A stretch of DNA of 11,988 nt from Vulcanimicrobiota bacterium (GTDB lineage: Bacteria; Vulcanimicrobiota; Vulcanimicrobiia; Vulcanimicrobiales; Vulcanimicrobiaceae). Positions within the stretch are counted from its first letter, which is position 1, and the number at the start of each line of letters is the position of its first letter. The notes under the pieces are model-generated. The model had not been told where the DNA came from. It ran no database searches and worked only from the letters and a program-made list of their open reading frames with translations. Of this stretch, positions 3-9,037 are shown piece after piece. The stretch is taken from contig PKZK01000013.1 in assembly GCA_003133025.1 (NCBI GenBank), positions 1 to 11,988 of the forward strand, read 5' to 3'. The position numbers were made by a program, and so were the translations under genes.

Positions 3-1079
3 TATTGCGACTTCGCGAAGTGGCCGCTGCGCCGTTCGCAGGCCGACCGCTATCTCGCGGCGCTCGAAACGGAGATCGCAGCCGTGCCGGACTTTCGCGC
101 GACCACGCTCTTCCTGGGCGGCGGCACGCCGAATACCTACGCGCCCGACCGCATCGCCGCGCTCGTCGGCCTGTTGCGCGCGCGTTTTGCGTTGCCCGCC
201 GGCGCCGAGGTTACGATCGAACTCAACCCCGATCTCGAGTTGTGCGAAGGCTTTGCCGCCTATCGCGCCGCGGGCATCGACCGCGCCTCGTTCGGCGTGC
301 AGTCGTTCGTGCTCGAGGAATTGCGGACGCTGGGCCGGCGGCACACGCCCGGCGACGTGGCCGAAGCGGTGCGTCGCGTGCGGGACGCCGGCTTTGCGAA
401 CGTCTCGCTCGACCTCATCTTCGCGGTTCCGGGACAAACCGTGGCCTCGTGGCGGCAGTCGCTCGATGCGGCCCTCGCGCTCGAGCCTGAACACATCTCG
501 ACGTACGGCTTGACGGTGGAGGAGGGCACGCCCTACGCCCGCTGGTTCGAGCGCGAACCGGGCCGCTTCACCTCGCAGGATATCGAAGCGGAGCTCTACG
601 CTGAGGCGATCGAGCGCCTGACCGGCGCCGGCTACGAGCAGTACGAGATCTCCAACTTCGCCAAGCCCGGGCGACGCTCGGCGCACAACGCGAACTATTG
701 GGCCAACGGGGAGTACCTCGGGCTCGGCGTCGGCGCGGCGTCGTATCTGGGCGGCGTCCGCAGCGTGCGCACCCGCGATCTCTCGGCGTATTGCGACGCG
801 GCCCTGGCAGGCGTGCCCGTGCCGGTCGAAGCCGAGCAACTGACCGGCGATGCCCGTACGGGCGAAGCCGTCATGCTCGCTTTGCGCACCGCCGAGGGGG
901 TAGAGCTCGCCGCGTTTGCGGAACGATACGCGGTCGACTTCGGCGAACGGTACCGAGAGGTGTTGGAGGAAATGCGAACCGCGGGAATGCTGGAAGTGAC
1001 GACGACGCACGTACGCCTGACCGCGCGCGGCCGGTTCGTGGCCAACGACGTCTGCGCCGCATTCGTGGCGCCGGCCTGA
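3..1079 (+). CDS. hemW: Radical SAM heme chaperone HemW (HemN-like), 5'-truncated by the window edge
   Basis: The frame is open from base 3 and reads YCDFAKWP..., the end of the CxxxCxxC motif, so the true start lies upstream of the window and not at 84. Motifs include FLGGGTP, EVTIELNP, RASFGVQSF, DLIFAVPGQT, HISTYGLTVEEGT, YEISNFAKPG, HNANYW and YLGLGVGAAS. Confidence 0.9.
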   Translation, partial: YCDFAKWPLRRSQADRYLAALETEIAAVPDFRATTLFLGGGTPNTYAPDRIAALVGLLRARFALPAGAEVTIELNPDLELCEGFAAYRAAGIDRASFGVQSFVLEELRTLGRRHTPGDVAEAVRRVRDAGFANVSLDLIFAVPGQTVASWRQSLDAALALEPEHISTYGLTVEEGTPYARWFEREPGRFTSQDIEAELYAEAIERLTGAGYEQYEISNFAKPGRRSAHNANYWANGEYLGLGVGAASYLGGVRSVRTRDLSAYCDAALAGVPVPVEAEQLTGDARTGEAVMLALRTAEGVELAAFAERYAVDFGERYREVLEEMRTAGMLEVTTTHVRLTARGRFVANDVCAAFVAPA

Positions 1080-1081
1080 CC

Positions 1082-2164
1082 GTGTCGACCGCTTTTCTGC
1101 GCATCCTCTTCGCGGGCGTCTTCGCGGTGACGGGCTGGCTGCTCGGACGCGAGGCCTACACGCACATGATTTCGCTGCACGTGGCCAATCAACTCTGGTC
1201 GATCGTGCTCACGATCGTGGTGCCCGTCGCGGGCGCTCTGGCCGGCGTCTTTTTGGCGCCGCCCGCCCAAGCGCTCTTCGAGAACGAACTCAATGCCGTC
1301 GAGCGTGCCATGCAGCGCCTCGCACCCGCGGAGGTGATGGGCGGTGCAATCGGTCTGGTCGTCGGGCTGCTGGTGGCGTTCTTGGCCAAGAGCGTGCTCT
1401 TCGAATTCGTGGCCAACGCCGGGCCGCCGGGCGCCTATCTCGCCAACGTCTTCTATCTCTTGCTGAGCATCTTCGCGGCATATCTCGGTGCGCGCATCGG
1501 CGCAAAGCAGCAGTTGCCGGCGCTGCGGCCCGGCGAGGTTGCGAACGTCGAGCCCGCGCCGCCCGCGAAGCTGCTGGATACCTCGGTCATCGTCGACGGG
1601 CGCATCCTCGAGATCGTGCAGAGCGGTTTCCTCGACGGTCCGCTCGTGCTGCCACGCTTCGTGTTGCGCGAACTGCAGTTGATCGCCGATTCGCTCGACG
1701 GCATGAAGCGCGCGCGCGGGCGCCGCGGCCTCGAGGTGCTGGGCAAACTCCAAGACAGCGTGACGCTCGAAATCGACGAGCGCGACTTTCCCGATTCGGG
1801 CGTCGATGCGAAGCTACTCCGGCTCGCGCGGGAACGCGGAGCGAAACTCGTGACCAACGACTACAATCTCAACCGCGTCGCTCAGGTCGAGGGTGTGGTC
1901 GTGCTCAACATCAACGAACTCGCCGGAGCGGTCAAACCCGTCGTGCTGCCCGGTGAAGAACTGCACGTGAGCATCGTGCGCGACGGCAAGGAGCCGCATC
2001 AGGGCGTCGGCTACCTCGAGGACGGCACGATGATCGTGGTCGAAAACGGCCGCCGGCTGATCGGCGAAGACGCCGACGTCCAGGTTACGAGCGTCTTGCA
2101 GACCGTGGCAGGGCGGATGATTTTCGCCAAGGTCAAACGTTCTAGTCCAGTGCAGAATGGTTGA
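1082..2164 (+). CDS. yacL: Membrane-anchored PIN/TRAM domain protein (YacL family)
   Basis: GTG at 1082, 2 nt after the hemW stop. About four hydrophobic segments precede the PIN motifs LLDTSVIVDGRI, RGRRGLEVL, VDAKLL and VTNDYNLNRVA and the TRAM-like GVGYLEDGTMIVVE...VLQTVAGRMIFAK. The 698 start in the ORF track overlaps hemW. Confidence 0.9.
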   Translation: MSTAFLRILFAGVFAVTGWLLGREAYTHMISLHVANQLWSIVLTIVVPVAGALAGVFLAPPAQALFENELNAVERAMQRLAPAEVMGGAIGLVVGLLVAFLAKSVLFEFVANAGPPGAYLANVFYLLLSIFAAYLGARIGAKQQLPALRPGEVANVEPAPPAKLLDTSVIVDGRILEIVQSGFLDGPLVLPRFVLRELQLIADSLDGMKRARGRRGLEVLGKLQDSVTLEIDERDFPDSGVDAKLLRLARERGAKLVTNDYNLNRVAQVEGVVVLNINELAGAVKPVVLPGEELHVSIVRDGKEPHQGVGYLEDGTMIVVENGRRLIGEDADVQVTSVLQTVAGRMIFAKVKRSSPVQNG

Positions 2165-2181
2165 CTCGTTGGGGGGATACT

Positions 2182-2886
2182 TTGGCGCCAAAGTTTTGCG
2201 CCGTCGTAGTCGCCGCCGGTCGCGGCGTGAGATTCGGCAGGCCCAAACAGATGATCGACATCGCCGGCCATCCGCTGGTCAGTTGGTCGTTTGCGGTGTT
2301 CGGCGGAATGCCGGAGTTGGACGCGCTGGTGATCGCGACGGAAGAAGAGACGGTCGAGGCCATGCGCGGCTTGGCTTCGGCCTACGCGCCGCGCCTCGAA
2401 ACGAAGGTCGTGCGCGGCGGCTCCACGCGCCAGCAGAGCGTTCGTAACGCGCTGGCCGCGGTACCCGACCGCTGCACGGCGGTGTTCGTGCACGACGGCG
2501 CGCGGCCGCTCGTGAGCGAGATCGACGTGCGCGCGGGCATGGCCGCCGTGCGTCCGGGAATCGGCGCGGTGCTGGCCTCGCCGGTGGTCGATACGATCAA
2601 GGTCGTGGCAACGGGCACGCGGAGCGTGGCCAAAACCTTGGACCGTTCGGAACTCTGGGCCGCGCAGACGCCGCAGTTCGCCATGCTCGCCGACCTGATC
2701 GAAGCGCACGAGGCGGCAGCGCGCGACGGCGTCGATGCGACCGACGATGTGGCGTTGCTCGAGCGTCTCGGCTTGGAAGTGGTCGTCGTACCCGCCCGCA
2801 GCGAGAATTTCAAGGTGACCCACCCCGGCGACCTGAGCGTGGTCGAGGCGATCATGCGCGAACGCATCGCCCGCTTGGATTCATGA
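2182..2886 (+). CDS. ispD: 2-C-methyl-D-erythritol 4-phosphate cytidylyltransferase
   Basis: Motifs [46 protein letters not shown] and [13 protein letters not shown] at 2182 follows a GGGGGA SD-like run; 2161 is an alternative start. Confidence 0.93.
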
Positions 2887-3362
2887 GCCTGCGGGTCGGG
2901 CACGGTTTCGACGCGCACCGGCTGGTCGAGGGCCGGCCCTTCGTGCTCGGCGGCGTCACGATACCCTTCGAACGCGGCCCGCTCGGCCATTCCGATGCCG
3001 ACGTGCTGGCGCACGCGATTTCGGACGCGATCCTCGGCGCCTGTGCGCTCGGGGATCTGGGCCGGCACTTTCCCGATACCGACCCGCGCTGGAAGGGCGC
3101 CGACTCGCTGGTGCTGCTCGCGCACTGCATCGGCTTGGCCCGGGAGGCGGGATACGCCGTGCTCAACATCGACGCGACGGTGGTCGTCCAGGCTCCCAAG
3201 CTCGCGCCGCACATCGAGGCGATCCGGGCGAAGCTTGCCCAAACGCTCGGGATCGAAGCGGACGCGGTCGGCGTGAAAGCCAAGACTAGCGAAGGGATGG
3301 GCTATACGGGCGATGGAACGGGCATCGCCGCCTATGCGGTCGCCGCGCTCGAACGTCCCTGA
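2883..3362 (+). CDS. ispF: 2-C-methyl-D-erythritol 2,4-cyclodiphosphate synthase
   Basis: Motifs [41 protein letters not shown] and [14 protein letters not shown] overlap with ispD. Confidence 0.96.
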
Positions 3363-3373
3363 CCTCCGGCTCA

Positions 3374-3982
3374 ATGCATGAATCCGATACCTCGCCGACT
3401 CGCTTCCACGCGCCCGCCGCCGGCGCAACGCCCGAGCGCGCCCTCGAGGACGTCCGGTTGGCGATGCAGCGCGCCGGGTTGCTCGAAGATCCGGCGCCGC
3501 CCGCCGCCCTGCGCTGGATCGAAACGTTCTTGGAGGCCTTCGGCGACCGCCTGAGCGCGCCGGCCGACGCGGTGCCCATCGTGCGCGCTCTCCGCGCCGA
3601 GGCCGCGGTGGTGCCCGCATTGGAACTAGAACGGCTGCGCAACCGCCAGGTGCTGTTCTTCCTCGATACGATCGGACAGTACGTCGATGCGCAGCCCGAA
3701 CTCCGCGGGCTTCCGCTCGAGCACGACCTGCGCGAGATCGCCGCCGAGTTCGGCATCGAGCCCGCCGCCGCGGCGGCGGCGCTACGCATGGCGCTCACCG
3801 GCGAGGCCGATGGGCCGCCGCTCGAATTACTCTTCCCGCTGCTGGGCCACGACCGGATCATGTTGCGCATCGGCGCGATCAGCTCTCATCTGCTCCACGG
3901 TCGAGGCCTCGAGCCGATCCGTTACGGTCCCGACGGCAAGCCCTTCGAAACCCTCGCGGGAAAGAAGCCCGAACGACCATGA
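3374..3982 (+). CDS. Stand-alone protein resembling the C-terminal anticodon-binding domain of glutamyl-tRNA synthetase (no catalytic domain)
   Basis: LREIAAEFGI...LRMALTGEADGPPLELLFPLLGHDRIMLRI matches the GluRS C-terminal LRxALTG...GPxL...LLG...RL pattern. No HIGH or KMSKS motif. It occupies the ispF-gltX-cysE slot and overlaps cysE by ATGA. Confidence 0.75.
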   Translation: MHESDTSPTRFHAPAAGATPERALEDVRLAMQRAGLLEDPAPPAALRWIETFLEAFGDRLSAPADAVPIVRALRAEAAVVPALELERLRNRQVLFFLDTIGQYVDAQPELRGLPLEHDLREIAAEFGIEPAAAAAALRMALTGEADGPPLELLFPLLGHDRIMLRIGAISSHLLHGRGLEPIRYGPDGKPFETLAGKKPERP

Positions 3983-4677
3983 GTGCAGGCCGTGCGGGCG
4001 GGCCGACGATTTGGAAGATGCTGGCGGCCGATATCCGCGTGCCGGTCGAACGCGACCCCGCGGCCCGCGGCGTGGTCGACGTGCTGCTCTCGTACCCGGG
4101 CGTGCACGCGCTCATCGCGCACCGCTTCATCCACCTGCTGCACGGCACGCATCTGCCCTTGCTGCCGCGCCTGCTCTCGACGTGGGTCCGCTTTCTGACC
4201 GGCGTGGAAATCCATCCCGGCGCGCAACTGGGCGCAGGCTTCTTCATCGATCACGGCATGGGGGTGGTGATCGGTGAAACCGTCGAAGCGGGTCGCAACG
4301 TGACGATCTATCAGGGCGTCACGCTCGGTGGCACGAGCCTGCAACGCGGCAAACGGCATCCGACGCTCGGCGACAACGTGACCGTCGGCGTGGGCGCAGC
4401 GGTGCTCGGCGCGATCACGCTCGGCGACAACGTCAAGGTCGGCGCGGGCTCCGTCGTAGTCAAGGACGTTCCGGCGAACTCGACGGTCGTCGGCATTCCC
4501 GCGCGCGTCGTGTTGCAAGACGGACATCCCGTGCGCGCGGGCGCGCCGCCCCACGTCGACATGCCCGACCCCAACGCCGACGCGTTGCGCCGGCTGCGCG
4601 ACCGTCTGGACTCGCTCGAGGCGCGTTTGGCCGAACTGAGCCGTAGCCCGCAATCGTGGGACGATGTCGCGATCTGA
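3979..4677 (+). CDS. cysE: Serine O-acetyltransferase (short type)
   Basis: Motifs ERDPAAR, YPGVHAL, TGVEIHPGA, FFIDHGMGVVIGET, YQGVTLGGT, KRHPTLG and VGAGSVVVKDVP (hexapeptide repeats). Confidence 0.95.
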   Translation: MSAGRAGGPTIWKMLAADIRVPVERDPAARGVVDVLLSYPGVHALIAHRFIHLLHGTHLPLLPRLLSTWVRFLTGVEIHPGAQLGAGFFIDHGMGVVIGETVEAGRNVTIYQGVTLGGTSLQRGKRHPTLGDNVTVGVGAAVLGAITLGDNVKVGAGSVVVKDVPANSTVVGIPARVVLQDGHPVRAGAPPHVDMPDPNADALRRLRDRLDSLEARLAELSRSPQSWDDVAI

Positions 4678-6217
4678 GCGGCCGGGCGCATTGCGCCTCT
4701 TCAACACCCGCACCCGTTCGGTCGAACCGTTCGCGCCGCTCCGCGACGGCCGGGTGCGCATCTACGTCTGCGGCTTGACGCCCTCGGCCGAAGCGCACAT
4801 CGGGCACGCGCGCTCGTTCCTGTTCTTCGACGTGCTGCGCCGGTATCTGGTGCATTTGGGCTATCGCGTCGACCTCGTGCGCAACGTGACCGACATCGAC
4901 GATCGCAGCATCGAGGCCGCCCGGCAGAGCGGCGGCGACTGGCGCGAGATCGTCGGCGGATATTACGCTTCGTTTCAGCGTTCGATGCGTCGGCTGCACG
5001 TGCTCGATCCCGATCACGAGCCGCACGCCACGGCGTACGTGCCCCAGATCCTCGAGATGATCGAGGAACTCGTCGCGACGGGCCACGCCTACGTGGTGGA
5101 GGACGGCGTCTATTTTCGGGTGCGCTCGTTCCCGCGCTACGGTGCGCTCTCCGGCCGCAACCTGGACGAACTGCTCATCGGTGCGCGCATCGCGCCCGGT
5201 GAAGGCAAGGACGATCCGCTGGATTTCGCGCTGTGGAAGTTCGTGAAGCCGGGCGAACCGTCGTGGCCGTCGCCCTGGGGACCGGGACGGCCCGGTTGGC
5301 ACATCGAGTGCTCGGCAATGGCCCGCGAGCTGCTCGGGGAGCCGTTCGACATCCACGGCGGCGGCTACGATCTGATCTTCCCGCATCACGAGAACGAGAT
5401 CGCGCAGAGCGAGTCGCTCTTGCCCGCGCCGCCGATGGCCAACGTGTGGATGCACGGCGGCCTGCTGCTCTTCGACGGGCGCAAGATGTCGAAGTCGCTG
5501 GGCAACTTCGAGCCGCTCTCCGCGCTGCTCGATCGTCACGAGCCGCAAGCGATCCGGCTCCTTTTCTTGCAGACCGGCTACCGCAAGCCGATGAACTTCA
5601 CCGAAGACTCGATCGACGGCGCGACGACGGCACTGCGCCGGTTGCTCGCGGCCTACGACGCATTCCGCGCGGTGCCCGCAGGAGAGGCCGAGGGCGATCC
5701 GCAGGGACTGATCGACGAGTTCGCCCCGCGCTTCTTCGCGGCGCTCGACGACGACGTTAACACCTCGGGCGCGATGTCGGTGCTCTTCGAACTCGCCGCC
5801 GCGCAAAACCGCGTGATCGCGGGCGGAGCCGCATCGGCGGCGGCAGCCTTCATGCATCAAGCGATGGATCTGCTCGGCATCTCGCCCGTGCAGCGCAGCG
5901 CGCCCATCGAGGCGGCGGCGACCGTCAGCAGTTCCTTCCAGGTCGGCGGCGCCGACTACGTGGTCGAGGCGCCGCAAGACGTCGACGCGGTGCTCTCCGA
6001 CGCCGCCTTCGCGCGCTTGCGCGAGGCGCTCGACGGCGCGGTCGAACTCGACGGCGAGCCGAAGGCGCAGGCTGTGGAGTTGGTGATCGTAGCCCGCGCG
6101 CAGGCCAAGTCGGCGAAGGATTTCGCGCGCGCCGACCGGCTGCGCGACGCATTGAAGGCCGCGGGCATCGCCGTGACCGACCTCAAGAACGGAGCATCGT
6201 GGACCGTCGCAGGCTAG
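4664..6217 (+). CDS. cysS: Cysteine--tRNA ligase
   Basis: Motifs YVCG...[69 protein letters not shown] and ALDDDVNT, plus the C-terminal [13 protein letters not shown]. Confidence 0.96.
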
Positions 6218-6993
6218 GCTCGAGACGTCCTCCGCACCGCAAAGAGTCGCTCGACCTCGACGACATCGTTTACGGCGTCCACGCGGTCGAGGAAGCTCTG
6301 GCCGGAAAAGAAGAACTCAAGCGCATCCACGTCGGCGACGAACGCAAACGCGATCCGGCCTTGCGCAAGCTACTCGACGGCGCGCGCGAAGCGGCCGTGC
6401 CCGTGCGCTTCGAGAACCGGTCGTTCTTCGCGCAGTTCCCGTATCGCGCGCATCAGAGCGTCGTGGCCTTCGGCACGCCCTTCGACTACGTCACCTTGGA
6501 AGAAACGCTGAATCTGAAGGCGCCCGGCGGACGCCTCTACGTCGTGCTCGACCACATCACCGATCCGCACAACGCCGGCGCGATTCTCCGTTCCGCCGAG
6601 TGTGCGGGCGCGACCGCGGCGATCATGCCCGAGCGTCGCGCCGCCGGCGTGAACGCGACCGTGCGCAAGTCGGCGGCGGGCGCCACCGCGTATCTGCCGG
6701 TGGCCCGCGTCGCCAACGTGGCCGGCGCGCTGCGCGTGATGAAGAAGGCGGGCGTCTGGATTGCCGGCTCGGCGCTCTCGGACGAAGCCCAGGATTACTC
6801 CGCCGCCGACTTTCGGCGCGACGTGGCGATCGTGATCGGCGCCGAAGGTACCGGCATCTCGCAGGTCGTGCGCAAGGAGTGCGACTATCTCGTGCGCATC
6901 CCGCACTTCGGCAAGATCGAGTCGCTCAACGCGTCGGTCGCCGCAGGGATTTTGCTCTTCGAAGCCCGCCGCCAGCGCGCGACGGCCGGCTAG
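6199..6993 (+). CDS. rlmB: 23S rRNA (G2251) 2'-O-methyltransferase, TrmH/SpoU family
   Basis: Motifs VYGVHAVEEAL, LDHITDPHNAGAILRSA, KSAAGA, IGAEGTGIS and IPHFGKIESLNASVAAGILLFE. GTG start follows GGAG (6191-6194); the exact start is uncertain. Confidence 0.9.
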   Translation: MDRRRLGSRRPPHRKESLDLDDIVYGVHAVEEALAGKEELKRIHVGDERKRDPALRKLLDGAREAAVPVRFENRSFFAQFPYRAHQSVVAFGTPFDYVTLEETLNLKAPGGRLYVVLDHITDPHNAGAILRSAECAGATAAIMPERRAAGVNATVRKSAAGATAYLPVARVANVAGALRVMKKAGVWIAGSALSDEAQDYSAADFRRDVAIVIGAEGTGISQVVRKECDYLVRIPHFGKIESLNASVAAGILLFEARRQRATAG

Positions 6994-7003
6994 ATCTTTC
7001 GAA

Positions 7004-7945
7004 CTAGCCCTTCAACGGCGTTCGGCTGCGCCGGTACTGCGGCACGGTCGAGGCCTTGACGAATTCGACGAAGCGTTTGGCGAGCGGCGAGAGCGCGCGT
7101 TCTTTGAGCGTGACGAGCGAAAACTGGCGCCGCAGGTCGACGTTGCGGATGTCCACGACGTGCAGGCGGCCCTCGCGCACGCCGCGTTCGACGACGAGCC
7201 AGGATAGGAAGGCGATGCCCAAGCCCGCTTCGACCGCTCGCGCCACGCCCTCGAGGCTCGGCACGGTCAGGTGCGTGGCCAACTCGACGCCGTGAGCGGC
7301 CAATTCGCGATCGGCCACGATGCGCGTCGCCGAACTCGCTTCACGTGCGACGAGGCGTTCGTCGGCGAGATCCTCGACGCGGATCGAGCGCCGTTGTGAG
7401 AAGCGGTGGCCTTCGGCCGGAACGACGAGCACCAGGTGGTCTTCGCCGAAAGGGATCGTTTCGAAGGCTTCGTCTTCGTCGGAGATCGTGCCGACCGCGA
7501 GCGCGACGTTGATGCGGCGCGACTTGAGGTAGCGCCCGAGGCGCGCGGCGTTGGCGAAATGAACGCTGATCTTCGCGTCGGGATGCGCCGCTTCGAATCG
7601 CGCGAGCAGCGGAGCCAGTGCGTAGCTGCCGATCGTCAAGGTCGCGCCGATATCGAGACTGCCCGCACGCGCCGAGATGAATTCGCTCATCTCGCGTTCG
7701 AGCGCCGCGACGTCGTCGAGCACCGCGCGCGAACGATCGGCGAGAAAACGTCCGGCATCGGTGAGGATCGGCCGGCGCTTCACGACTTCGATCAACGGCA
7801 ACCCGAAGTGGTCCGACAAAGAACGCACCTGAAGCGCGACGGCCGGTGGAGTCAAGCCGAACTCCTCGGCCGTTCTTGCAAACGTCCCGAGCTCGGAGAG
7901 CCGCACGAACGTGTGCAGTTGCGCGAGGGTCAACGACGCCGCCAT
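7004..7945 (-). CDS. LysR-family transcriptional regulator (CysL/CbbR-like substrate-binding domain)
   Basis: N-terminal HTH TLAQLHTFVRLSELGTFARTAEEFGLTPPAVALQVRSL, followed by LTDAGR, IGATLTIGSYAL, REASSATR (REPGSGTR-like), VEAGLGIAFLS and LSPLAKRFVEF. Confidence 0.9.
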   Translation of the reverse strand: MAASLTLAQLHTFVRLSELGTFARTAEEFGLTPPAVALQVRSLSDHFGLPLIEVVKRRPILTDAGRFLADRSRAVLDDVAALEREMSEFISARAGSLDIGATLTIGSYALAPLLARFEAAHPDAKISVHFANAARLGRYLKSRRINVALAVGTISDEDEAFETIPFGEDHLVLVVPAEGHRFSQRRSIRVEDLADERLVAREASSATRIVADRELAAHGVELATHLTVPSLEGVARAVEAGLGIAFLSWLVVERGVREGRLHVVDIRNVDLRRQFSLVTLKERALSPLAKRFVEFVKASTVPQYRRSRTPLKG

Positions 7946-7990
7946 CTAGCTCACCGCGTTCGTGGATTCGCCGATGTAACCATGCCTTGG

Positions 7991-8015
7991 AAAACTTGAC
8001 ATGAAGCAAAGTTTT
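7991..8015. promoter_or_regulatory. Inverted repeat AAAACTT-N11-AAGTTTT, candidate LysR operator (T-N11-A)
   Basis: Perfect 7-bp arms at 7991-7997 and 8009-8015 with an 11-nt spacer. It lies 45-70 nt upstream of the LysR start and overlaps the -35 of the divergent promoter. Confidence 0.55.
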
Positions 8016-8023
8016 GGTATACT
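7996..8023 (+). promoter_or_regulatory. Sigma70/SigA-type promoter of the candidate ncRNA
   Basis: TTGACA (7996-8001), 16-nt spacer ending in TGn, TATACT (8018-8023). Near consensus with an extended -10; predicted start about 8030. Confidence 0.8.
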
Positions 8024-8029
8024 CATCTC

Positions 8030-8268
8030 ATCCTCGGTGTGTCAAGCTGCTTACACGTAAAGCCACGGTGCGTAGGGGCGCCGTTGGAGGATCGTTCCGA
8101 GCCGGATCTACAGCCGGAGCCCGGCTCGGGTCGAAACGGCCGGTGGAGGACCCCATGCAGGCGTGCTCGTTTCCGCACGGCGGGCACCCCGAAATAGGAC
8201 ATCCTCCGCCGGCTCGTTGGTTTTTCCTAAGACAGGCCGGGGGGCGGGGACTCCCCCCGGCCTCTTTT
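8030..8268 (+). ncRNA. Candidate structured non-coding RNA (~235 nt), family not recognised
   Basis: Bounded by a consensus promoter and an intrinsic terminator, with no credible self-contained ORF. Visible helices: 8097-8105/8121-8129, 8163-8171/8179-8187, 8069-8078/8151-8159 and 8086-8092/8201-8207. Confidence 0.6.
8234..8268 (+). terminator. Rho-independent terminator
   Basis: 11-bp stem AGGCCGGGGGG (8234-8244) / CCCCCCGGCCT (8253-8263), 8-nt loop, followed by CTTTTAT. Confidence 0.8.
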
Positions 8269-8283
8269 ATCAGCCCTTTCACC

Positions 8284-8312
8284 TTGACGCTCTTGCAGGA
8301 CCCTCCTATACT
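8284..8312 (+). promoter_or_regulatory. Sigma70/SigA-type promoter of sigH
   Basis: TTGACG (8284-8289), 17-nt spacer, TATACT (8307-8312). GGAG at 8375-8378 precedes the ATG at 8390. Confidence 0.8.
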
Positions 8313-8389
8313 AGTCGGGATGCGAACGGCTCGACGGGCTCCGGCCCGCGATTTCGCTCGCCTCGGGACCTATTGGAGAAACGACGAGT

Positions 8390-9037
8390 ATGGGGGTTGC
8401 GCAGAGCGCGCCCGACGCGCTCGAGTACCACGAGCGCGCCGACGAAGATCTGGTCTCCGCCGCTAAGAGCGGGGACAACCTTGCCATGGAGTTCCTGCTC
8501 AACAAGTACAAGAACTTCGTGCGCATAAAGGCCAAGAGCTACTTCTTGATCGGAGCCGATCGCGAAGACATCATCCAAGAAGGCATGATCGGGCTCTACA
8601 AGGCCGTCCGCGACTTCAAAGCCGACAAACTTTCGAGCTTTCGGGCTTTCGCCGAGCTGTGTATCACCCGCCAGATCATCACGGCGATCAAGACCGCGAC
8701 GCGCCAGAAGCACATCCCGCTCAACCAGTACATCTCGCTGAACAAGCCGATCTACGATGAGGACAGTGAGCGGACGCTGCTCGACGTGATGGCCTCCCAG
8801 AAGACTTCTGATCCCGAGGAGTTGGTGATCAACCAAGAAGTCTCCGAGGACATCAAGGAGCGGATCCAAGAGAACCTCTCCGATTTGGAATCCCAGGTTC
8901 TGCTTTCTTACCTCGAGGGTAAGAGCTACCAGGAGATGGCCCGGGATCTCAACCGCCACGTCAAGTCGATCGACAACGCGCTGCAACGCGTCAAGCGGAA
9001 GATCGAGAAGAACTTGGCCGAGATCGAGCTGCCCTAG
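8390..9037 (+). CDS. sigH: RNA polymerase sigma factor SigH (Spo0H family)
   Basis: KYKNFVRIKAKSYFLIGADREDIIQEGMIGLYKAVRDF, SFRAFAELCITRQIITAIKTATRQKHIPLN and KSIDNALQRVKRK are hallmark SigH sequences. Its position downstream of cysS-rlmB is also typical. Confidence 0.95.
   Translation: MGVAQSAPDALEYHERADEDLVSAAKSGDNLAMEFLLNKYKNFVRIKAKSYFLIGADREDIIQEGMIGLYKAVRDFKADKLSSFRAFAELCITRQIITAIKTATRQKHIPLNQYISLNKPIYDEDSERTLLDVMASQKTSDPEELVINQEVSEDIKERIQENLSDLESQVLLSYLEGKSYQEMARDLNRHVKSIDNALQRVKRKIEKNLAEIELP

Follow-up and report, generated by a model that had tools for sequence, protein, structure and literature searches.

A LysR regulator and a divergent candidate small RNA inserted between rlmB and sigH in an Eremiobacterota-like genome

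The 11,988-base stretch of contig PKZK01000013.1 analyzed here, referred to below as the window, comes from an Eremiobacterota-like genome of an uncultured soil bacterium. Between rlmB and sigH it carries the gene of a transcriptional regulator of the LysR type (LTTR), a candidate non-coding RNA gene that diverges from it, and a compact control region that lies between the two. The regulator gene, the shared control region, the RNA and its terminator form one lineage-specific insertion of approximately 1.28 kb relative to all of the relatives sampled. The explanation that best accounts for this arrangement, which we adopt tentatively and at somewhat less than an even prospect, is that the inserted block consists of two divergent units driven from a single pseudo-symmetrical control region, in which LysR bound at a perfect inverted repeat (dyad) would occlude both promoters. 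An original prediction for this DNA had proposed that the regulator controls both itself and the RNA; the observation on which that proposal was built is confirmed, and its interpretation is partly supported.

The insertion between rlmB and sigH

The comparative sample consisted of 80 sigH-centred loci (1.24 Mb), obtained by scanning a collection of species-representative genomes with sigH. This gene was chosen as the query because the original prediction had named, as the finding that would count against it, an RNA that is kept upstream of sigH in genomes without the LysR gene. The closest loci, in which sigH is 86-98% identical to that of the window (97-98% in the two loci designated L001 and L002), belong to metagenome-assembled genomes titled Vulcanimicrobiota, Eremiobacteraeota or Baltobacteraceae. 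The other genes of these loci are only 50-80% identical to their counterparts in the window, so that no close relative of the window genome is present among the 80 loci.

The gene rlmB is syntenic with sigH in 69 of the 80 loci; the interval that separates them there has a median length of 155 bp and does not exceed 355 bp in 51 of the 69, compared to 1397 bp in the window. No homologue of the LysR protein was found in any of the 80 sigH loci (tblastn, E <= 1e-3), and the RNA was likewise found in none of them by blastn (word size 7), by nhmmer, or by R1, a single-sequence covariance model composed of the window sequence and its fold. Model R1 scores 245 bits on itself; its best match in any locus has an E value of 0.096, and the minus strand of the window itself contains a hairpin with an E value of 0.041. 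When the whole intergenic region is used with nhmmer, the relatives match only the sigH promoter and leader, with matches that start from 8244-8289 and mostly from 8262-8282. The left edge of the insertion is sharp, with the stop codon of lysR 10 bp from that of rlmB. Since the gap is short in the relatives, homology resumes at the sigH promoter, and both LysR and the RNA are absent, the interval from 6994 to approximately 8270 is a single insertion.

An RNA retained upstream of sigH without its regulator was thus not encountered: the RNA and LysR are both absent in 80 of 80 loci. This joint absence is compatible with the two forming a module, one whose presence is represented by a single instance.

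The rlmB-sigH spacer (6994-8283 in the window) is an insertion hot spot in Eremiobacterota, with cargo that differs by lineage. The cargo is a periplasmic-binding-protein gene in L001 (8510-9712), L003 (377-1558), L004 (8671-9894) and L021 (97-1164), an AHSA1/MarR-type gene in L010 (8968-10002), a methyltransferase together with DUF2891 in L012 (8087-9768), a GGDEF protein in L051 (8146-9738), and 8 kb of other sequence in L014 (1669-10001). Where rlmB and lysR converge in the window (6988-7009), their stop codons form a 6-bp inverted repeat, GGCTAG-N10-CTAGCC, and no T-run terminator is visible there for either gene.

The shared control region

The candidate LysR operator is a dyad whose arms, AAAACTT (7991-7997) and AAGTTTT (8009-8015), contain 7+7 nt separated by an 11-nt spacer, and which conforms to the T-N11-A type (T7997-N11-A8009). 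It lies 46-70 bp upstream of the lysR start at 7945. Its left arm overlaps the -35 hexamer TTGACA (7996-8001) of P1, the promoter of the RNA, and its right arm reaches as far as the T that opens the extended -10 element TGgTATACT (8015-8023). The original prediction of a perfect AT-rich inverted repeat that overlaps the -35 of the RNA promoter just upstream of the LysR start is therefore confirmed exactly.

Whether such a repeat is surprising depends on what is expected beforehand. Among 1000 dinucleotide shuffles of the 444-bp intergenic region, 3.1% contain a perfect 7-N11-7 repeat, and among 2000 shuffles of the 115-bp control region (7946-8060) 0.5% do, but when any spacer of 3-20 nt is allowed, a repeat of this kind is present in 41% of shuffles. 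Because repeats with a free spacer are so common, the dyad exceeds chance only if a spacer of 11 nt is anticipated, as it is beside a LysR gene. The window contains two other perfect 7-N11-7 repeats, both of them GC-rich and located inside genes. It contains no second copy or near-copy of the dyad itself, the best sequence elsewhere reaching 10 of 14 matches.

P1 is a sigma-70-type promoter with a score of 11/12 and the additional TG, and it ranks first among the three promoter-like sites of the window, compared to a mean of 1.1 such sites in shuffles; its start near 8030 is predicted by a 7-nt rule. On the minus strand, a second TTGACA (8045-8040) mirrors the -35 of P1 (inverted repeat I6), which renders the control region pseudo-symmetrical, and this hexamer would serve as the -35 of a candidate lysR promoter. 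The element GGTATACT reads TATACT in the rightward direction and TATACC in the leftward direction, so that TATA is common to both -10 elements. The predicted divergent starts, near 8030 and 8009, are 21 bp apart. Starts separated by 10-23 bp are described as typical of bacterial bidirectional promoters, with common spacings of 18, 10 and 23 bp and small variation, in the sections of PMC12825309 available to us.

The distance from the lysR ATG (7945) to the predicted RNA start is only 85 bp, and the region therefore has the form expected of an LTTR gene and a divergent target, namely a short shared interval that contains a T-N11-A dyad. The centre of the dyad (8003) lies at about -27 of P1, and with respect to the putative lysR promoter the dyad extends from about -6 to +19.

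An alternative promoter for the RNA, situated 50-80 bp to the right of the dyad so as to make the dyad a canonical anchoring site, was also sought and rejected: there are no acceptable hexamers in 8030-8070, and the promoter scan called none.

The candidate RNA and its terminator

The segment that runs rightward from P1 has several of the attributes by which small RNA genes are recognised, namely a promoter of its own, a Rho-independent terminator, an intergenic position and no coding signal. The RNA gene divergent from LysR in the original prediction is borne out in this sense, as a predicted promoter-terminator unit that resembles an independent non-coding RNA gene. The predicted RNA (8030-8270) has a minimum free energy (MFE) of -126.5 kcal/mol, and its fold z score is -4.67 with the terminator and -3.05 for the body alone; in neither case does any of 200 shuffles (0/200) fold as well. 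The terminator at 8234-8270 is the strongest of seven terminator-like sites in the window, with a hairpin worth approximately -30 kcal/mol, computed as the difference in MFE between the folds with and without it. Since the upstream fold is identical in the two cases, the terminator folds independently of the RNA body.

Evidence of coding is absent. The guanine-plus-cytosine (GC) content of third codon positions is 0.61-0.70 in all six frames of the RNA region, compared to 0.82-0.87 in eight real genes of the window, and Pfam assigns no family to the two frames that are fully open across the region. The 84-aa minus-strand frame, compared with 1.84 billion representatives, yields only two low-complexity matches in giant proteins and no real homologue, and the 81-aa plus-strand frame yields no candidate in a collection of 5.8 billion proteins. 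An exact look-up of 10 variants of these open reading frames (ORFs), including three that start with ATG, found none in the protein collection, although variants starting with GTG or TTG may have been missed through their literal first residue.

At gathering scores, Rfam (release 15) recognises only three tRNAs in the window. At E <= 10 on 7900-8450, the best Rfam matches are BjrC80, with 18.5 bits against a cut-off of 80, and SAH, with 19 against 37 on the minus strand (E 0.27-0.37). These weak matches were rejected as being at chance level, since SAH is on the wrong strand and BjrC80 and ar35 are driven by the terminator. A search of the plasmid collection in distant mode with the RNA and its promoter gave no match.

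In the predicted fold, two anti-Shine-Dalgarno-like motifs, CAUCCUC(C), are each paired to an internal GGAGGA, and a U-rich linker precedes the terminator. Several complementary words recur in the RNA: CGAGCCGG occurs once and CCGGCUCG twice (8098-8105, 8121-8128 and 8208-8215), AUCCUC(C) twice (8030-8035 and 8200-8206) and GGAGGA twice (8086-8092 and 8144-8149). Alternative pairings between modules of the RNA are thus possible, to judge from these words.

Table 1. Coordinates of the inserted elements and of the genes and promoter that flank them
Feature	Position	Strand	Details
rlmB, 23S rRNA 2'-O-methyltransferase	6199..6993	+	TIGR00186, 208 bits (cut-off 160); Pfam SpoU_methylase; left flank of the insertion
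LysR-type transcriptional regulator, intact, 313 aa	7004..7945	-	PF00126 HTH_1, residues 7-66 (51.5 bits); PF03466 LysR_substrate, residues 93-298 (163.7 bits)
Perfect dyad AAAACTT-N11-AAGTTTT, T-N11-A type, candidate LysR operator	7991..8015		Unique in the window; about -39 to -15 of P1
P1, promoter of the RNA	7996..8023	+	-35 TTGACA (7996-8001), 16-nt spacer, extended -10 TGgTATACT (8015-8023); predicted start about 8030
Candidate lysR promoter	8016..8045	-	-35 TTGACA (8045 to 8040), 18-nt spacer, -10 TATACC (8021 to 8016); predicted start about 8009
Candidate non-coding RNA, about 240 nt	8030..8270	+	Predicted fold: three-way 5' domain, two long hairpins, U-rich linker, terminator
Intrinsic terminator	8234..8270	+	Stem 8234-8263, 11 pairs (10 G-C), 8-nt loop, tail CTTTTAT
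P2, proximal promoter of sigH	8284..8312	+	TTGACG-17-TATACT; right flank of the insertion; conserved in relatives
sigH, sporulation-type sigma factor H family	8390..9037	+	NF006148, 362 bits (cut-off 208); TIGR02859, 341 bits (cut-off 294.8); right flank of the insertion

The LysR-type regulator

The protein encoded at 7004-7945 has the domain architecture and the size, approximately 300 aa, of an LTTR, and the assignment to the LysR family in the original prediction holds for an intact gene with both HTH_1 and LysR_substrate. The start at 7945 is sound, because HTH_1 is already found at residues 7-66.

The nearest solved structures are the CbbR-type 5y2v (E 8e-29) and the YeiE-like 8sbf, while the structures of OxyR are distant matches (PDB E about 1e-13). 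The protein falls below every curated NCBIfam subfamily cut-off. Its best model is that of a selenium-metabolism-associated LysR (176.7 bits against 250), and the scores and cut-offs for other models are 139.9/450 for CbbR, 70.7/402 for the CysB family, 107.9/329 for OxyR, 74.3/288 for GcvA and 128.1/480 for YeiE; the NCBIfam results listed include no model for CysL itself. Of the predicted CysL/CbbR-like character, what stands is the resemblance to CbbR-type and YeiE-like proteins among solved relatives, and what does not is membership in the CbbR subfamily, whose cut-off is far above the score obtained.

The location beside cysE and cysS had also been read as a hint of a sulfur or cysteine signal. 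This is not supported, because the same gene row recurs without LysR: the order cysE-cysS-rlmB-sigH or cysS-rlmB-sigH is found in 47 Eremiobacterota-type loci, none of them with LysR. Since the row is common without the regulator, the neighbourhood says nothing about the effector, and the adjacency of lysR to the cys genes is a consequence of where the insertion landed.

Homologues of the regulator in the protein collection are 89, 82, 81 and 79% identical to it (P0002-P0005), and there is a further series at 60-71% (P0006-P0025) named Baltobacteraceae or Eremiobacteraeota. One homologue with 52% identity is on a record of 2,979,520 bp, which is the size of the L006 chromosome, and L006 has no LysR within 10 kb of sigH. 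For both a LysR homologue (P0010, 67% identity) and an RlmB homologue (P0233, 71%), the match list gives one contig of 8,415 bp. Approximately 0.07 equalities of this type are expected by chance among contigs of at least 5 kb, and the LysR and RlmB match lists share only two other sizes, that of the contig to which the window belongs (192,254) and that of a 2.77-Mb record. The 8,415-bp coincidence is a weak hint that LysR and rlmB are linked in another lineage and that the linkage is older. Among the closest RlmB relatives (85-91% identity, on contigs of 2.6-17 kb) there is none with a LysR match on a contig of equal size; their LysR may be inside the window's own 90% cluster, which holds 17 contigs as against 4 for RlmB.

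Proposed regulation and alternative explanations

In the explanation preferred here, the left unit is lysR, read from a weak candidate promoter whose -10 would use the TATA of P1, and the right unit is a self-contained gene for a structured non-coding RNA of about 240 nt, preceded by a near-consensus promoter and closed by a strong terminator that would insulate sigH. A dimer or tetramer of LysR on the dyad would occlude RNA polymerase in both orientations, and this would result in negative autoregulation of lysR and in repression of the RNA. The repression would be relieved or remodelled once an effector binds the CbbR-like effector domain, and the RNA would then act in trans on its targets. 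Occlusion of both promoters is proposed, rather than activation of the kind associated with OxyR or GcvA, because the perfect dyad is on the promoter core and the promoter is one that needs no activator. A LysR gene and the target from which it diverges typically share a bidirectional promoter in which operators overlap, and autorepression by steric hindrance is described for LysR genes in the parts of PMC11495319 available to us.

Several observations weigh against this explanation. The high-symmetry, high-affinity anchoring site of LysR proteins is usually found between -80 and -50 relative to the start of the target, and the weaker activation sites cover the -35 and -10, again according to portions of PMC11495319, but the present dyad has its centre at about -27 relative to the start predicted for P1. 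No second LysR-type site (T-N11-A with at least 5/7 pairs) is recognisable in 7900-8330. The arms of the dyad could be plain promoter features, an A-tract upstream of the -35 and a T-tract before the extended -10. The candidate lysR promoter is weak, since its -10 lacks the final conserved T, and it was not called by the promoter scan. As regards the RNA, neither conservation nor covariation is available to set beside the fold, because no homologue was found in the 80 related sigH loci and the RNA is a single instance; the minus strand of the same region also has a z score of -3.74, as expected for GC-rich hairpins, and GC-rich DNA folds well in any case. Finally, the duplex energies of the RNA with seven local translation-initiation regions in the window are no better than those of 300 shuffles (z -0.98 to +1.07).

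The points that concern the dyad speak for an alternative in which the RNA is real and independently transcribed but P1 is constitutive, the dyad being incidental promoter-associated A/T sequence, LysR regulating only itself or distant genes, and the regulator and the RNA being neighbours merely through one inserted fragment. A dyad at the promoter core instead of at -80 to -50, an 11/12 promoter with an extended -10 that requires no activator, the abundance of free-spacer repeats in shuffled sequence and the lack of a second LysR-type site would all follow. This alternative must nevertheless treat as accidental a repeat with seven perfect pairs and exactly N11, although no more than 0.5% of the shuffled versions of the 115-bp control region have one and although it adjoins a LysR gene, next to which a site of this type is expected; and for a repressor it is normal that the operator overlaps a strong promoter. 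We consider it unlikely.

The points that concern the RNA speak for a second alternative, similarly doubtful, in which there is no functional RNA and 8030-8233 is leftover non-coding DNA of the inserted fragment, such as the leader or 5' end, now decayed, of a former divergent target of LysR, with P1 as the present or past promoter of that target and the terminator only guarding sigH from read-through. The failure to find a homologue in Rfam or in the 1.24 Mb of related loci, the fact that the junction is a hot spot occupied by unrelated cargo in other genomes, and the good folding of the minus strand are what would be anticipated for a remnant. A remnant would not be expected, however, to retain a near-consensus promoter and a canonical strong terminator, both intact and spaced as in a small RNA gene; the open frames have no Pfam family and no protein homologues, so that there is no trace of a decayed gene; and the body fold exceeds those of all 200 shuffles.

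The unit could instead be part of sigH regulation, with P1 and the structured RNA constituting a second, LysR-gated promoter and leader for sigH, and with partial read-through of the terminator adding a LysR-dependent input. The RNA has the same orientation as sigH and is immediately upstream of it, and only about 14 bp separate the end of its terminator from the -35 of P2. Against this, sigH keeps its own promoter and leader, which are conserved in relatives without the insertion, and the terminator hairpin folds independently of the upstream structure, with no competing antiterminator in either fold. Because of this independent fold and of the conserved promoter and leader that sigH retains, a stand-alone RNA is ranked above a sigH leader, which is very unlikely.

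That the region encodes a small protein, either the 84-aa minus-strand ORF at 8028-8282 or a plus-strand frame with ATG 8155 placed 5 nt behind a GGAGGA, is so improbable that it was rejected: two frames are indeed open across the region, but there is no codon-position GC bias or periodicity, no Pfam family and no protein homologue, and the plus-strand ORF runs through both the terminator and the sigH promoter.

The occlusion of divergent promoters by LysR may be extended into a broader proposal, which is speculative and on the whole improbable. According to this proposal, the whole block would be a portable, self-contained cassette of LysR and small RNA, the RNA being the founding member of a new family in an uncultured phylum, with GGAGGA-masked anti-Shine-Dalgarno-like motifs, switched by the cassette's ligand-sensing regulator, and the operator being located in a shared bidirectional promoter core; the cassette would have landed at a hot spot upstream of the sigH promoter and leader, and would possibly couple a metabolic signal to sigH-dependent physiology.

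Relation to known systems

Divergent pairs of a LysR regulator and a small RNA are already established, and the present candidate is alike in outline and differs in the position of the operator, in the RNA family and in being a lineage-specific insertion seen once. In Escherichia coli, the LysR-type regulator OxyR adjoins the divergent small RNA OxyS, which is under its control, and OxyR activates oxyS from upstream of the -35. The present locus resembles this pair in that a LysR-type gene adjoins a divergent RNA unit, and the OxyR family model is a distant match to the regulator (107.9 bits); it differs in that the OxyR cut-off of 329 is not reached, there is no Rfam match, and the dyad spans -39 to -15. 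Both GcvB and OxyS are assumed to be among the Rfam families.

The GcvA/GcvB pair of Enterobacteria and their relatives has a comparable layout, a LysR-family gene divergent from a small RNA gene of approximately 200 nt with its own Rho-independent terminator, and its regulator binds the shared control region (PMC1557403, in part). GcvA activates gcvB and, with GcvR, represses it, and the conservation of the pair across many genera was the route by which gcvB homologues were found, as stated in the same portion of PMC1557403. The present locus differs in that it is a single instance, its regulator reaches 74 bits with the GcvA model, whose cut-off is 288, its dyad covers the promoter core, and no Rfam family is matched.

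In Rhizobiales, the LysR-type regulator VtlR/LsrB controls the AbcR small RNAs, according to parts of PMC11495319 and PMC11975290; at the level of titles and abstract, to which this comparison is limited, that system differs in belonging to another phylum and in involving other RNA families. The control region itself resembles the bacterial bidirectional promoters outlined in sections of PMC12825309, in that a single GGTATACT has a TTGACA box on either side, one on the plus strand (7996-8001) and the other, opposed to it, on the minus strand (8045-8040), and the predicted starts have a comparable spacing of 21 bp; it differs in that its minus-strand -10, TATACC, is weak and both of its starts are predicted.

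Neighbouring genes and the sigH promoter

The plus strand to the left of the insertion carries a Firmicutes-like housekeeping row that consists of a HemN-like radical-SAM gene, a PIN/TRAM (YacL-like) gene, ispD, ispF, an ORF with a GluRS anticodon domain, cysE, cysS and rlmB. After rlmB come the LysR gene on the minus strand (7004-7945), the 444-bp untranslated stretch, sigH (8390-9037) and tRNA-Thr, and beyond this tRNA there is a DEAD-box helicase on the minus strand, followed by tRNA-Tyr and tRNA-Gly.

The SigH protein (8390-9037) is a sporulation-type equivalog above the NCBIfam cut-offs, and it is part of a Bacillota-like row, yacL-ispD-ispF-cysE-cysS-rlmB-sigH (698-9037). To our knowledge, Eremiobacterota is not a phylum known for sporulation. 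In loci titled Bacillota, yacP is found between rlmB and sigH, as confirmed with Pfam in L070 and as indicated by ORFs of the same size in L068, L075, L078 and L079, and it is missing from the Eremiobacterota loci. The ORF of 202 aa at 3374-3982, between ispF and cysE, has a GluRS-type anticodon-binding domain only (PF19269), without a catalytic domain, and occupies the place of gltX in Bacillota. Most of the closer loci have a counterpart with 62-77% identity, and two have one with 38-39%; the ORF matches no NCBIfam model.

The promoter of sigH (8282-8312) was aligned between the window and nine loci (L001-L006, L014, L017 and L024) whose other genes are only 60-75% identical. Its CTTGA and CCTCCTATA cores are invariant in 10/10 aligned sequences, and conservation extends beyond the hexamers, with CTTGA and the block GCAGGACCCTCCTATACT, which comprises the spacer and the -10, invariant or nearly so in all ten. 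The conserved spacer suggests, at the level of sequence, a conserved site for a regulator.

The 5' leader of sigH (8319-8389, and about 75 nt upstream of sigH in L001-L048) is predicted to form an outer stem, GAUGCG...CGCAUC, around the hairpin GGGCUCCGGCCC, followed by a short U-run. Compensatory double changes occur in 10/13 predicted pairs in an alignment of 36 sequences, and there is no Rfam match over the leader in the search of 7900-8450 at E <= 10. For sigH in Eremiobacterota, this leader may serve as an attenuator or as a hairpin to which a regulator binds.

Implications

If the RNA is not real, then the locus serves as a caution that in GC-rich DNA a good fold z score, together with a consensus promoter and a strong terminator, does not alone make an RNA gene. 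If the RNA exists and LysR controls it, then this would be the first pair of a regulator and a small RNA proposed for Eremiobacterota (WPS-2), a phylum for which we know of no cultured model and for which the excerpts returned by a full-text literature search for Eremiobacterota and non-coding RNA came only from a soil co-assembly study. It would also be a case in which the operator of a LysR protein is located inside the core of a bidirectional promoter rather than upstream of it, and in which a regulator and its RNA target move together as one small insertion.

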